From a phage, in sequence record PZ445448.1: 64,000 bases of DNA; one strand, 5' to 3'. Shown here in pieces: positions 17,282-22,176 of this stretch; position 1 is the stretch's first letter; every line of letters begins with the position of its first letter. The notes under the pieces are model-generated. The model worked only from the letters and a program-made list of their open reading frames with translations. It ran no database searches and was not told where the DNA came from. The translations under genes were made by a program, and so were the position numbers.

Positions 17282-17554
17282 ATGTCAAGCTGGATTAATC
17301 AAGAAGTCGAATCACGTTTTAATGCTATTTGGGATCTCATCGAAAAAGAAGACGGCACATCAAGCCCCTACCTCAACAATTTGGAATTCCATTTTGTGGA
17401 AGCGATGAACGCAGAACATGATCACGAAGGTGGTGCGGACGAGTTCGCTAAAGGGTATGGCTTCAACAATGCCAACGAAATGATCGAGGCGGTTGTACTC
17501 CAGGCTGAGGAAGATTATCAATTAAAAACGCTTGAATTCTGCCGCCGTAAGTAA
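17282..17554 (+). CDS. hypothetical acidic protein
   Basis: TTGACA promoter, hairpin, AGAGAGGAAAACACT-ATG. Confidence 0.55.
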   Translation: MSSWINQEVESRFNAIWDLIEKEDGTSSPYLNNLEFHFVEAMNAEHDHEGGADEFAKGYGFNNANEMIEAVVLQAEEDYQLKTLEFCRRK

Positions 17555-17614
17555 TAAGATAATGACACGGGCCGGGAGGCCCACTAATCAGAACCACACA
17601 AAGAGGTAAACATC

Positions 17615-17878
17615 ATGAAACGTCTTGATCAGCTTAAACTAGTTCAGTACATGGCCTACAAAGTTCTTGAAGTCCAAAAAGGTAGCAAAAAAGAGGTTTG
17701 CGAGAAAGCATATAAGATCTTTACCCGTAAAAAAGATGATTGGATGTTACGCCAGACCAAAAAAGCCGATATCCTGGGATACCTGGAAGAAGAGATCCGA
17801 CTTGAAGAACAAGAAGAGATCCGCCGTAGTGAGGCAGATTATCAGGCAGCTTGGGAAAACTGGATGAGCAACAAATAA
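17615..17878 (+). CDS. hypothetical protein
   Basis: hairpin GGGCCGGGAGGCCC then AAAGAGGTAAACATC-ATG. Confidence 0.55.
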   Translation: MKRLDQLKLVQYMAYKVLEVQKGSKKEVCEKAYKIFTRKKDDWMLRQTKKADILGYLEEEIRLEEQEEIRRSEADYQAAWENWMSNK

Positions 17879-18022
17879 TACAACAAGTTACATGGTCAGG
17901 GGCAATAAAGCCCCTTGATCACATAAAAATTATGCTATCCCTGGTTGACAGGGATCGGCAGTTTTGCTATATTCTTTTTTGAAGGGAAGTTGTAAGAAAA
18001 TTAACTAAGAGGTAAAAACACC

Positions 18023-18442
18023 ATGAACATTAAATCTAATAATCCGGCATATAGCTTTGATAACGCTTTTTGTCACGGTCCGGCGGCGAAAGGATTCGAA
18101 ATCGATGGTAAACTAATTATTGTCAATGTTGACGGGGAAGAGGTTGCAGTATATCCGGTGGCAGACGTAAAAAGCCGTTTACAATGCCGCATGGATGTTA
18201 CCGCCTATCAGCTTGATCCGGTCCGCATAGTTGCCCTGGTCCTGGAAGAAGAAATTAAAGCCATGCACCATAGCAACAGATTTATTGGTGACGCGCAGGA
18301 TAATATGAAAGTATGCCGCCATAAAGTTAATGAAGTGCTTAAAGAGTACGGCTATAAAGATCTTATGATCAAACGTGAGGAAAAATTCCGCTACCGTAAC
18401 GACCTGGCAAATCGGATTTTTGAAATATACGAATCATTATAA
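18023..18442 (+). CDS. hypothetical protein
   Basis: TTGACA..TATATT promoter; AAGAGGTAAAAACACC-ATG. Confidence 0.55.
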   Translation: MNIKSNNPAYSFDNAFCHGPAAKGFEIDGKLIIVNVDGEEVAVYPVADVKSRLQCRMDVTAYQLDPVRIVALVLEEEIKAMHHSNRFIGDAQDNMKVCRHKVNEVLKEYGYKDLMIKREEKFRYRNDLANRIFEIYESL

Positions 18443-18461
18443 TTTTTTAACTGAATTATCA

Positions 18462-18486
18462 AGGGGCTTAGGCCCCTTTCTTTTTG
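18462..18486 (+). terminator. intrinsic terminator closing the plus-strand array
   Basis: AGGGGCTTAGGCCCCT followed by TTCTTTTTG. Confidence 0.65.
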
Positions 18487-18489
18487 TCT

Positions 18490-20950
18490 GCTCTTCCTCC
18501 TACCACAAACGGCCCAGCCTGGCAAGTGGAATAATTGACTAGCCATCAATCCCACACACTGTACAAATATACATGGAAAATAACTATTGCATAATTTTTC
18601 ATTGTGTGGTAGCAGGTCCATTTTTACCCGTTTTCTCTCTCAAAATTGCACGTAATGCCGCTATTGCACAAAATTTAACCTGATGCACATCTTCAATATC
18701 TTGTCAACAACTAAAAATCTTTATAAGTCATACACTTACACACTCACAAAAGCGTGTTCTACGTGAAAAATCGAGTATAACTATAGCCGCCAGATCTCAG
18801 AATTTACGTACGCTCACCATTCTATAGTCTGCTAAGTATTTATTCCAACCATGGAATAACGGAATAGTCAATACCTGCATAAAATAATTATTCGTGTAAA
18901 CTGCATAACATAAATCAGCTCAGGTGTCAACATTTTTCGTAAACAGTCCGAAATTGTCACGGTGAGTTATCATAAACAGAGAAATATTTAGTCGTCTAAT
19001 GTTTACTGTACATTACTATACTGACTGGAATCATTAGATGACTAAGAGAAAGATAAGAAATAATTAACAATACAATTATTTTATCTGTAACAATAAGGCA
19101 ACTATGCAAACGAATGGCATGGCGCGACGGAGTCGCGACATAATATAAAAGCAGTAACCATCACCCCCGTGATAGTTTGTCTGCAAACTATTAATCAGAT
19201 CATAGTTGCCTTGTATTTAGTTAATCATGACATAACAAGCAAGGCAACTATAGATCTTCTAATAGTTGCCCTGCTTTTATATTATGTCATAGAAACACCC
19301 GAAGGGGTGACCAAAGGTCACCTGGCATGGCCAGTGAAAGATTATTAACTTGTTAATTGTTAACTTGCTAATTGTTTTCATGCAAACGAATGTCATGGCT
19401 TATCCTATCTGTGTAAACAGTCAAGGTGTAAACTATCCAGGCGTAAACAATCTATACGTGAACAGTGAAACATGAAATAATAACAGTCGTTATTGTGTCG
19501 AAAGTGTATAAGGTGTCATAGTATGTCAGACAAGTTTTTCTCCTCTTTGTCAAGTGCTGCATGAAAAATTTACAAGCTTGTATGGTAGCATTTTTGCTGC
19601 CCTGTTTACATTCAGTTGTGTATGTATAACCCTTGTTGTGTGGGCGTTTAGACGTCTAGACGGTTGGAAGTCCGCAGGTTAATATCTAATCTATTGGCTG
19701 CTAACTATATCCCACACAAATAGTAAGAAATATAATTGTTATGTGCGTAAACAGTAACTCATGTTATCAATCCCTGTATGTATCGCCAGTGGTGCGCATA
19801 ATGGGTATTATGTTAAATTGCCCGTAATGATAACTATTCTCACAATGATAGGTATTCTCATTCACTCCCACAAGATAGGTTGCAAATGTTGTGCCACTGT
19901 GTGAACGGCCTCACCTATTAATTTGCCTCACTGCCTCGATATTTGAGAATTGTTATAAGAATGAGAAGTATTCCCATTTCGTCCGCCTGGCAGCACTCCA
20001 GTCGCTACCGCTCATGACAGGGCAGAACTAGACCCTCTTCAGATATTTCTGGCTGACTCTTCAGGCCTGTGTGGGAAAAGCCAACCTCTCCGGCGGCGGG
20101 GAGGGGTTTGTCAGGAAAATTGCAGGTCAATTAAAAAATTTACGTGGTATATGAAGCGCTCTTCAGGTAAGGCATGTATTATGGGATGAAACCCTCTTCA
20201 GGCAATGATATTTGTGGGTGTGATATTTGCTGGAAAGCCAGATATGACGGGACTCCCGGCGGGGCAGGGGTAGTACAGACAGGGGAAATATGGAGGATGT
20301 AGTTGGGGGAGTTGATCAAACAGGTAGAGTATGGAATATGTTACAAGTATGTTAAATATGGAGGGTGGATATCTGTAGGATTTATGTGTAAAATCAAAGA
20401 CTTAAGTGGTGTTGTGGTATTTTCTATAAATAATTCAAGTTTAATAGGTAATATTTGTCTCTATCCGCTTTGTGTGGTAAACAAATTCAGATGGTGTTGG
20501 TTTACAAGTGTATACATAATATACAAATTAAAGATACAAGAAACCCCCCTCCCCCTTCGGCTACCATTCACCTTTTCCTCTGACTGGTACTTAAACACTT
20601 ATTCAGACTCTTCAGGTTATCACCCATATATCATATGGCAGTGACTGGTGTCCTCCGGCCCCTCTTTCGTCACCCGTCCGCTTCGCCATGCTAATGCCAT
20701 AGCCAATGGTTCGGTTGTTCACCCTGTTCACTCAGGTGTATCTCCATACCCCTTCAAACCGAAGAGAACAGAAAACCCGAATTACTCGGTAAAAGAAAAG
20801 AGAAGAACTTAATTTTATCAGGATAGGCAAGAATGTCAAGGCATGACTGCTCACTAAACAAGCAAACAGTCATGTGTGGGAGGTAAGTGATTGTGGTGGT
20901 AGGAAATTTAGTTGAAAGATGTGTTATAGGTGCTCCCAGCACTTTAGCCG
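18490..20950. repeat. 2.4-kb gene-free repeat-dense region (GTAAACAG iterons, AAGGCAACTAT sites, CTCTTCAGG repeats)
   Basis: no ORF with SD on either strand; multiple short repeat families. Confidence 0.6.
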
Positions 20951-20966
20951 GGTAGCTAATTGTGTG

Positions 20967-21182
20967 TCAGTCCAGTGGTTCATCACCTACTTCACTGAAA
21001 TCAATGTTCATGGTCTCCTCCCAACCATCAATCTCAGCACCAGAGTAGAGATCTTTAGGACTTACTCCCAAAGCATCAGCAACAGAGTCCATATTTAACA
21101 CCTCTGGCAGGTATGATTTATCGAATTCAAGGTAAATCAGGCCACGAGTATTGTCAGCTCCACCAAATATTTCTATCTTCAT
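20967..21182 (-). CDS. hypothetical small acidic protein
   Basis: AGAGGAGATTTC-ATG on minus strand. Confidence 0.45.
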   Translation of the reverse strand: MKIEIFGGADNTRGLIYLEFDKSYLPEVLNMDSVADALGVSPKDLYSGAEIDGWEETMNIDFSEVGDEPLD

Positions 21183-21303
21183 GAAATCTCCTCTGGAAAT
21201 GAGAGTGTGAACAGGGTTTTATACGTTCCGATGCACAGGAATTATGCACGTTTTCCTCTTCAGGCCATGCTTTAGCATGAGGAACCTGTGTGGGCTCGGT
21301 GCT

Positions 21304-21516
21304 TCATAGTCTACCACCCCTGAACTCTTCGTGCTCAGGCATAATAGAGAACCAGATATCTACGATGTCTTCCCACGTTAGGTCATCAGCCTCAGGATCT
21401 ACCTGGAGCAAAGATGGAGAATCTTCAGAATCGAAGTTTTCCTCTTGCACTGGCTCAGTCAAGGGACATATAGTCACTCCTTTGGATGTCTCTTCAGATG
21501 CATGCGTGTTTATCAT
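21304..21516 (-). CDS. hypothetical acidic protein (internal start of a longer ORF)
   Basis: acidic C-terminal half; upstream half has atypical composition. Confidence 0.3.
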   Translation of the reverse strand: MINTHASEETSKGVTICPLTEPVQEENFDSEDSPSLLQVDPEADDLTWEDIVDIWFSIMPEHEEFRGGRL

Positions 21517-21876
21517 GTTCCACCCGTGAGTATTCCGGCAACAGCCGCTATGGACGTAATGATCATCAGAATAACCACCAAAACCTCTGACAATGTTTTC
21601 ATTGTGTATCCCATATTCTCCAAACGATGTGTGGATACTATCACTGGAGCGGCAATGTGTCAACAGAAACGCCGCGAGGGTTTGGTTAAAATCCGAGCGT
21701 ATGGTGATTTGGGTCAAAACGGACGTGCGTTCTCGCTACGCTCGAAATATAGAGTTGTTTGTAGGAAGCTCTTAAACGCTCTGTAACGAGATTATCTGTC
21801 CAAGGTATGCAATCGTGCACCAGATAAAGAAAAGGACGCCACAGAGCGTCCTAGGTGTCTTAAATTTGATATTTTG

Positions 21877-22176
21877 TTATACCCATGAGGGTTTATCAAG
21901 GTTGGAGTAGCTGAAAGGTGTCAAAAGGTGATTGTCAAAATCTCTCAAACTATCCAGATCTTTCTCCTCGTCCTGACACCATCTGTGCCTACATTTATTG
22001 TTGTAGTGCATAGAATGCATAGCGTTCTGCAACTTAACAGGTACAAGTGATTCAGGAGTAGATAGTATTGTTGGGTATGCCAGAACCACCTCAAACAGTG
22101 GAAACACATCGAAACTAAAGTCTACCTCTGCAGAGGTTGATGGCATGTAAGAGTATTTAGCCGCCTTTGTAGACAT
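21877..22176 (-). CDS. hypothetical protein (start at MSTKAAKY)
   Basis: GAGGTGG SD then ATG. Confidence 0.4.
   Translation of the reverse strand: MSTKAAKYSYMPSTSAEVDFSFDVFPLFEVVLAYPTILSTPESLVPVKLQNAMHSMHYNNKCRHRWCQDEEKDLDSLRDFDNHLLTPFSYSNLDKPSWV

Follow-up and report, generated by a model that had tools for sequence, protein, structure and literature searches.

Short sequence boxes around the direct terminal repeat of a Vequintavirus genome as candidate terminus-recognition sites

Short repeats next to genome ends are a known kind of element in phages. Phage T7 reportedly carries short-repeat arrays (SRL/SRR) on the flanks of its 160-bp terminal repetition, an arrangement said to go back to the work of Dunn and Studier from 1983, and the function of these arrays is itself not firmly established. 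At cosB of phage lambda (gpNu1 sites R3-R2-R1) and at pac of P1 (seven TGATCA/G hexamers), the small terminase binds short sites and so puts the large subunit in place. Here we describe a new, well-delimited member of this kind, a family of boxes built on the recurrent motif GTAAACAG, in a 64,000-nucleotide stretch of phage DNA (PZ445448.1; the whole stretch is called the window). The boxes show strong clustering around a 459-bp direct terminal repeat (DTR), and we propose, tentatively, that they could well be bound by a protein which recognises the terminus or takes part in packaging in a T7-type exact-DTR system. Motif copies lie inside the DTR and on both sides of it, and this context was decisive for our reading.

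By its sequence, the window phage is a Vequintavirus (rV5-like). The region 18400-20400 is matched at 90-96% identity by 120 phage records, all of them from this genus of rV5-like myoviruses with genomes of about 137 kb; the matching records named "Campylobacter phage" are also classified in Vequintavirus. The interval that bears the motifs, 18890-19760, lies within a stretch of about 2.5 kb without credible open reading frames (ORFs), the largest non-coding stretch of the genome. The rV5 genome paper shows a grey box labelled "non-coding" (2.6 kb) at this place, where two transcription units converge, and leaves it unexplained. The DTR itself is already known from the literature and public records. 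Our literature searches found no description of the motif, of a role for the non-coding region, of the box family, of its arrangement around the DTR, of its conservation across genera or of the variable arrays.

The direct terminal repeat and the boxes around it

The placement of the DTR, and with it of the physical end of the virion DNA, at 19529-19987 is well supported and rests on public records and published statements. In record PP464953 (phage ECP2309), the first and the last 459 nucleotides are identical and map to exactly these window positions. The records of HdK5, EdH4, Gotham, YN3, bov10K2 (of the bov phages), Pr121LW and ECP2303 begin or end on the DTR to the base, so that identical boundaries are found in records from at least five independent laboratories, and the Gotham record annotates the DTR as a repeat_region. 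Records opened at the genome end read the DTR from 19987 to 19529, that is, along the window minus strand. Korf 2019 described "short terminal redundancies of 458 bp". We rejected arbitrary assembly breakpoints as the cause of these record starts, because the boundaries are base-identical across laboratories and the repeat stands at both record ends. An identical sequence at both ends (in PP464953) and fixed boundaries (across the records) are as expected of a T7-type DTR. The window holds a single copy, as in a concatemer junction or a collapsed assembly. Most Vequintavirinae records in GenBank are opened at arbitrary positions; some papers and many records give a fixed DTR of 458/459 bp or of 514 bp.

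The longer repeat belongs to the sister genus Mydovirus. For KPP-1, a 514-bp DTR has been published, backed by twofold coverage and PhageTerm and assigned to T7-type packaging; the record of Mydovirus phage DP contains this 514-bp repeat too. The sequences at both boundaries are conserved from Vequintavirus to Mydovirus, the outer one as ...GTGCT(G/A)..^G(G/A)CGGAC... and the inner one as TGTAAATTT-N-CTTGACA-N16-TGT(C/G)^, where ^ marks the boundary. Furthermore, across 15 Vequintaviruses conservation switches abruptly at both boundaries, between a DTR that is about 95% identical and flanks that are hypervariable. The DTR boundaries are therefore functional landmarks.

An earlier note on this DNA had listed copies of (C/T)GTAAACA(G/A)T in both orientations between 18890 and 19760, and each listed position does carry the motif or a close variant. 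Exact matches stand at 18938, 19412, 19442 and 19746, and the remaining listed copies deviate from the 10-mer at one or two positions (Table 1); the copy at 18972 (CATAAACAGA) is the weakest of the set and doubtful. The four direct tandem copies, which had been given a spacing of about 15-16 bp, were recovered at 19413, 19428, 19443 and 19458 with a period of exactly 15 bp. The full box consensus is (G/A)(T/C)GTAAAC(A/T)GTCA. The dispersed single copies at 18896, 18939, 19000 (minus), 19602 (minus), 19747, 20477 and 20715-20731 (minus) are kept in all or nearly all of the 15 Vequintaviruses in which dispersed boxes were compared.

Inside the 871 bp flagged by the note lie 6 of the 17 window matches to GTAAACA (binomial P=7e-8) and all six matches of the 64-kb window to [CT]GT[AG]AAC[AT][AG]T (P=6e-12), P values that are optimistic in that both pattern and interval were picked after the data had been seen. 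Because the window patterns were chosen post hoc, we ran an unbiased 8-mer enrichment on the complete relative ECP2309 (136,863 bp), in which its terminal non-coding region (2.5 kb) was set against the rest of the genome (134 kb). The top non-homopolymer 8-mer was GTAAACAG (5 versus 2, P=4e-8, about 2,256 words). It occurs nine times in this genome, seven of them in terminal non-coding DNA (two are counted twice, leaving five unique sites) and only twice in the remaining 134 kb or so. The clustering therefore holds against the possibility, raised in the note, that the 8-mer is equally frequent elsewhere in the genome. Additionally, a position weight matrix scan of the 64-kb window found no comparable box elsewhere, in a test that is circular, the window's own sites being in the training set.

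Two arrays adjoin the inner DTR boundary. Read along the minus strand, the DTR (19987-19529) is followed by TGACA units at about 10 bp, by a palindrome (19479-19494) and by the GTAAACA boxes (19470-19411), and the boundary sequence TGTCA^GACAAG itself forms a TGTC-N-GACA palindrome. We compared the arrays in 12 non-redundant relatives. The distance from a conserved 20-mer, used as an anchor, to the DTR is 110-208 bp and is filled almost wholly by the two unit types. GTAAACA-type units follow one another at 15 bp in 31 cases and at 16 bp in 12. Most TGTCA-type units stand 9-11 bp apart, and the last of them abuts the DTR boundary in all 12 relatives; a period of about 10 bp puts these sites on one helix face. 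The relatives carry up to eight TGTCA-type units. For GTAAACA-type units, in which the core is kept and the spacers differ, the count runs from a single unit in navn, CM1 and Phage203 to about eight or more in rV5. This number is hypervariable among phages that are otherwise 90-95% identical. The word RTGTCA, which is too short for such a search, showed no enrichment window-wide, and RNA folding of the array on both strands was no better than that of shuffled sequences (z=+0.5).

Two relatives carry duplications at this locus. In Shigella phage CM1 (2069-3114 of its locus sequence), a 523-bp unit made up of the 459-bp DTR and a 64-bp TGTCA array is present in two 100%-identical tandem copies, as expected if its DTR were 523 bp and circularisation had kept both copies. 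Phage I29 (942-2081 of its locus sequence) has a different duplication, of 546 bp with a 120-bp palindrome in the outer flank, which is possibly an assembly artefact.

The boxes extend beyond the genus. KPP-1 DNA is not alignable with the window overall, and a sensitive comparison recovered collinear islands, namely a DTR-internal block, the inner boundary and the 15-mer CTTGACAGTTTACAC; the last of these matches the first array unit, read as its reverse complement, at 93% identity. The KPP-1 DTR region is in turn detectable in Seunavirus phages at about 70-74% identity. Scanning KPP-1, DP, PVP-SE1, SalP219 and EspYZU15 yielded a longer form of the motif, GTGTAAACTGTCA(A/G), in which the GTAAAC core and the second array's GTCA are joined. 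The extended box GTGTAAAC(A/T)GTCA recurs around the DTR at equivalent positions in Mydovirus and Seunavirus, and its 11-13 nt are kept while the surrounding non-coding DNA is only about 70% identical or unalignable. The outer-flank box of these two genera (TGACGTAAACTGTCAGC or CCGTAAACAGGTC) has the same orientation as the Vequintavirus pair, and inner- and outer-flank boxes are oppositely oriented in all three genera. In PVP-SE1, two exact copies of the 11-mer GTAAACTGTCA occur in 4.2 kb, for which our own calculation gives a chance expectation of about 0.002. A scan of viral contigs with the 17-mer TGACGTAAACTGTCAGC returned four contigs only and was uninformative. We regard the cross-genus box positions as the strongest evidence that the box may be a functional recognition element tied to the terminus.

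Table 1. Box family, terminal repeat and associated features. Positions are window coordinates; signed positions are relative to the conserved inner boundary, with orientations as in records that start at the genome end.
Feature	Position	Strand	Remarks
DTR, 459 bp, physical end of virion DNA (well supported)	19529..19987	-	Single copy in window
GTAAACA-type tandem array, four boxes GTGTAAACAGTCAAG, GTGTAAACTATCCAG, GCGTAAACAATCTAT, ACGTGAACAGTGAAA	19411..19470	+	15-bp period; 59-118 bp outside inner DTR boundary
TGTCA-type half-box array (TGTGTCG, GTGTAT, GTGTCA, ATGTCA)	19494..19528	+	Period about 10 bp; ends exactly at DTR boundary
Palindrome AATAACAGTCGTTATT between the two arrays	19479..19494	.	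In CM1, the 523-bp repeated unit starts directly after the homologue
Core variant TGTAAACTGC	18895	+	
Core variant TGTAAACTAT	19427	+	
Core variant CGTGAACAGT	19457	+	
Core variant TGTAAACAGG	19602	-	
Weaker inverted copy AGTAAACATT	19000..19009	-	Within a block 97% conserved
Dispersed box GTGTAAACTGCATAA	18894..18908	+	Conserved in relatives
Dispersed box TCGTAAACAGTCCGA	18937..18951	+	About 580 bp beyond inner DTR boundary; kept in nearly all relatives
Inverted box ATGTAAACAGGGCAG, inside DTR	19597..19611	-	81 bp from inner boundary; 15/15 relatives
Box GCGTAAACAGTAACT, inside DTR	19745..19759	+	226 bp from inner boundary; 15/15 relatives
Outer-flank copy GGTAAACAAAT	20475..20485	+	GGTAAACAGAT here in most relatives
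Overlapping GTGAACA box pair GAGTGAACAGGGTGAACAA, outer flank	20715..20731	-	Inverted relative to inner array; conserved in relatives
Inner-flank boxes, across genera	+50 to +175	minus	Vequintavirus array; single box in KPP-1 (+173), SalP219 (+106), EspYZU15 (+105)
DTR-internal boxes, across genera	-170 or -226	minus	Seunavirus (-170); Vequintavirus (-226)
Outer-flank boxes, across genera	about -690 to -960	plus	KPP-1 (-689); Seunavirus (-807 to -962)
Outer-flank box pair	about -1170 to -1235	plus	Vequintavirus
Intrinsic terminator (strong)	18461..18478	+	Closes plus-strand gene block; left edge of non-coding region; annotated terminator in Murica and Gotham

Packaging and the competing explanations

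On our favoured reading, the GTAAACA boxes and the TGTCA half-boxes would be recognised by a sequence-specific protein that gathers at the concatemer junction, and the most probable binder would be the DNA-recognition (small-terminase-like) component of a T7-type exact-DTR packaging system. In the concatemer, a single 459-bp copy of the DTR would be flanked by oppositely oriented boxes, with the array on the inner side, the pair on the outer side and two boxes internal. The box-bound protein might spread along the helically phased TGTCA units and position a nuclease, which would make two site-specific cuts, an inner one at TGTCA^GACAAG (19528/19529) and an outer one at GTCCGCC^TGGCAG (19987/19988). 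The DTR would then be duplicated, and both ends of each packaged genome would carry the repeat. The number of array units would drift through slippage or unequal recombination and would only tune affinity. Inverted boxes on both sides of the DTR, together with a phased half-box array that runs up to the cut site, fit two cuts 459 bp apart. We infer the binding of a protein to the boxes, its identity and its role in cutting or packaging.

Packaging sites would be looked for within a few hundred bp of the end, in multiple copies, including inverted ones, around the cut sites, and conserved among relatives. The array lies 59-118 bp from the boundary, the internal boxes at -81 and -226, and the TGTCA units abut it. 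Multiple copies that include inverted ones surround the cut sites in all three genera, and the dispersed boxes are kept in 15/15 Vequintaviruses, the extended box also in Mydovirus and Seunavirus. In T3 and T7, packaging specificity has been mapped within 5% of the genome termini.

However, several observations weigh against this proposal. No small terminase is annotated in these phage genomes, and the nine neighbouring proteins have no DNA-binding domain recognisable by Pfam. At a period of 15-16 bp, successive boxes face alternate sides of the helix, an uncommon arrangement where proteins bind cooperatively. Since some viable relatives have a single unit and PVP-SE1 is without an inner-flank box, the array as such must be dispensable. 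An AT-rich tandem 15-mer (19341-19376) upstream of the array makes the layout origin-like too. Furthermore, published packaging calls conflict, since Vequintaviruses have been called "circular permutated" or headful by PhageTerm, and PVP-SE1 and phiTE are described as circularly permuted; according to a methods paper, transposase-based libraries can hide true termini. Our placement of the DTR draws on the records and statements of others.

A bolder variant, to which we give little credence, treats the arrays as an adjustable ruler: the box-reading protein would spread along the TGTCA half-boxes and the nuclease would cut at the end of the filament. Array composition would then set the position of the inner cut and hence the length of the DTR, and the 523-bp unit of CM1, which comprises DTR and TGTCA array, hints at this. 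If true, exact terminal repeats would be defined here in an evolvable manner that has no earlier description, and a myovirus subfamily would for the first time have a defined recognition architecture for T7-type packaging.

Four other explanations have to be set against the packaging proposal. The boxes might be iterons of a replication origin that adjoins the genome end by chance, where a phage or host initiator would bind them, melt the AT-rich 15-mers and load a gp4-like primase-helicase. The main anatomical argument for this comes from the AT-rich repeat (ATTGTTAACTTGCTA, 2.4 copies at 19341-19376), which lies between an ultra-conserved block and the array, direct repeats beside an AT-rich tandem repeat being the classic layout of an origin; the 15-mer falls in a variable stretch and is present in one copy in relatives such as I29. 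Also in favour of an origin, the largest non-coding stretch of the genome is where the GC skew turns (about 20-21 kb in the window). In ICP1, whose polymerase is related to that of rV5, late read depth peaks at one genome end, suggesting a late origin, and PLE, a satellite of ICP1, has iterons for its origins; on where an origin lies, we take ICP1 as a loose lead only. According to the rV5 authors, however, the change of GC/AT skew here, like the genome's other three, follows a switch in transcription direction. The period of 15-16 bp is not one or two helical turns, the core spans only 9-11 bp, and one unit is enough in navn, CM1 and Phage203, as are single boxes in the other genera. The flanking gene blocks are convergent, the opposite of the divergent layout expected of an origin, and Pfam recognises no initiator-like domain in the nine neighbouring proteins. 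Moreover, an origin would have no need of boxes whose positions follow both DTR boundaries, nor of inverted copies to the left and right of it. We consider an origin unlikely. The boxes could also be operator or architectural sites through which a regulator or nucleoid-type protein controls or blocks transcription across the junction, for instance from a minus-strand promoter at 20839-20812. This near-consensus sigma-70 promoter in the outer flank is indeed directed at the DTR, terminator-like hairpins stand beyond the array on the minus strand (19309-19296 and 19177-19156), and the region holds other operator-like families (GGCAACTAT and AATGAKA..TATTCYCA palindromes). Yet no promoter-like site in 18890-19760 scores above 9 of 12 and none overlaps a box; there is no downstream gene to regulate, and a hairpin with a T-run comes no more than about 20 nt after the outer-flank promoter. 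Since operators would also leave unexplained why the TGTCA units end exactly at the DTR boundary, we find this role quite improbable.

The units of the second array raise a further possibility, that the GTC in GTGTC and TGTCA serves as a preferred start site for a T7 gp4-like primase, the last lagging-strand primer falling at the DTR boundary, so that the DTR would be left as a single-stranded tail from which concatemers form. The recognition site of T7 primase is 5'-GTC-3', for example within GTGTC; a gp4-like primase-helicase is encoded by rV5, and the units all lie on the strand that ends at the terminus (3' end) and stop at the boundary. GTC is nevertheless too short to be diagnostic of this primase, RTGTCA is not enriched in the window overall, and the longer GTAAAC part, the inverted copies and the outer-flank boxes would go unexplained, which makes a priming role highly improbable. 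Finally, the arrays might be a slippage-prone minisatellite beside a recombinogenic end with no sequence-specific function, or, in a variant of this, a repeat RNA that acts as an anti-defence decoy like the pseudo-ToxI of phiTE. The hypervariable unit number among otherwise closely similar phages would suit a minisatellite, and in phiTE, which is rV5-like, a non-coding repeat expands under selection and defeats ToxIN. Against a minisatellite, the core stays constant as the spacers change, and the dispersed single copies are kept throughout the relatives and in other genera. Against a decoy, neither strand of the array gives a fold signal and there is no Rfam match; its units are degenerate and 15-16 nt long, where a ToxI-type RNA would show near-identical pseudoknot units of about 34-40 nt (36 nt in phiTE), and the phiTE repeat occupies another place, with a tRNA gene on one side and genes upstream of the large terminase on the other. 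We judge this explanation, in either form, distinctly improbable. As a homologous precedent, phiTE pseudo-ToxI was rejected on account of its different locus.

The suggestion of the earlier note that the motif marks protein-binding sites remains plausible, given a core of 9-11 bp with variable spacers, both orientations, regular spacing and occurrence in three genera. Its choice of binder, an initiator or a transcription factor, appears less likely than a role at the terminus or in packaging: the period, the one-unit arrays, the lack of an initiator-like domain and convergent transcription disfavour an initiator, and a transcription factor would meet no credible promoter in 18890-19760 and gene blocks that point inward. 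Compared by eye, with no formal scan, the box gave no convincing match to the consensus sequences of DnaA, IHF, CRP, TyrR, PurR and OmpR.

Surroundings of the box family

To the left, the non-coding stretch is bordered by a small plus-strand gene block, whose last gene ends at 18442, and to the right by a minus-strand block that ends near 20967, so that both blocks are transcribed toward the motif region. A Pfam search with nine small proteins from these neighbouring genes gave nothing above the curated threshold and sub-threshold noise only. The label "DNA translocase FtsK", which some records give to an 87-aa ORF (17615-17878), finds no support in Pfam. A 139-aa ORF (18023-18442) adjoins the non-coding region and is missing in 4/15 relatives (SYGMH1, APCEc02, slur16, A142). 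This accessory gene borders the terminal region. It has no Pfam match, and one record mentions a "Rel homology domain". An Rfam scan of window positions 17500-22000 at E<=1 returned no match.

On the inner side of the arrays, the block 19081-19290 is about 100% identical in the 15 Vequintaviruses, above the level of the flanking genes. Within it lie a perfect 18-nt inverted repeat (19137-19154 / 19271-19288), four GGCAACTAT sites in both orientations and two facing hairpin-plus-T-run elements, which could be the "missing" bidirectional terminators expected by the rV5 authors; a similar hairpin, GTAACTAT, is found in KPP-1. The 20-mer ATGCAAACGAATG(G/T)CATGGC occurs at 19104-19123 and again at 19380-19399, 276 bp apart. 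Its second copy immediately precedes the GTAAACA array and is kept in every relative; near 20826-20842 there is also part of a third.

Inside the DTR are three imperfect palindromes of the form AATGAKAnnTATTCYCA(TT), at 19826-19842, 19844-19860 and 19960-19976, which resemble operators for a dimeric protein. Related palindromes, ATGATAA-N4-TTATCAT and AATGAGAAT, occur in and beyond the KPP-1 DTR. The outer flank (20037-20275 and 20547-20554) carries CTCTTCAGG repeats and KOPS-like GGGNAGGG sequences, 3 of whose 10 matches in the 64-kb window fall there (20098, 20262 and, on the minus strand, 20547), a suggestive share. Farther out, the putative promoter on the minus strand (20812-20839) consists of TTGACA, a 16-nt spacer and TGATAAAAT and is directed from the outer flank to the DTR; a small hairpin with a T-run (20789-20777) follows about 20 nt past it. 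Transcription across the junction from this promoter would recall T7.

Comparison with known systems

Our analysis offers a concrete candidate for a packaging signal, a box of 11-13 nt around the DTR in three genera of Vequintavirinae, a subfamily without defined packaging signals, and natural variants with one to about eight array units are at hand. It would also give a function-related explanation for part of the 2.6-kb "non-coding" box of rV5. In practical terms, many Vequintavirus records in GenBank are opened arbitrarily or called circularly permuted despite the fixed end described here.

The closest likeness is to T7 and T3. As in these phages, an exact short DTR is present in a single copy at the concatemer junction and candidate packaging signals lie close to the termini, and, as in T7, short degenerate repeat arrays abut the terminal repeat on the unique-sequence side. 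Unlike T7, the phage is a myovirus of another family that relies on the host RNA polymerase, with no pause mechanism of a phage RNA polymerase. Its motif is unrelated to that of T7, it has two nested unit types (15-16 bp and about 10 bp), and boxes also stand inside the repeat.

With cosB and pac the locus shares several short sites, some of them inverted, within about 100-200 bp of the cut. In contrast to lambda, where one staggered cut leaves cohesive ends, two cuts 459 bp apart and a duplication would be needed here, and P1 differs in its headful packaging. Copy number is fixed in cosB and pac, whereas here it varies. The iterons of plasmid and lambdoid origins and the RepA_N iterons of PLE resemble the boxes in their direct repeats with a conserved core, the AT-rich tandem repeat and the large non-coding region. 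The boxes differ from such origins in a period of 15-16 bp, in the single copy that suffices in some relatives, in convergent transcription, in the lack of an initiator gene nearby and in positions that are tied to the DTR boundaries. Finally, phiTE pseudo-ToxI resembles the array in being a tandem repeat of non-coding DNA, found in a Vequintavirinae genome, with a copy number that readily changes. However, the pseudo-ToxI unit is a structured RNA of 36 nt, a mimic of a type III antitoxin, and lies beside tRNA genes upstream of the large terminase, whereas the array described here, without fold signal or Rfam match, adjoins the end of the genome.

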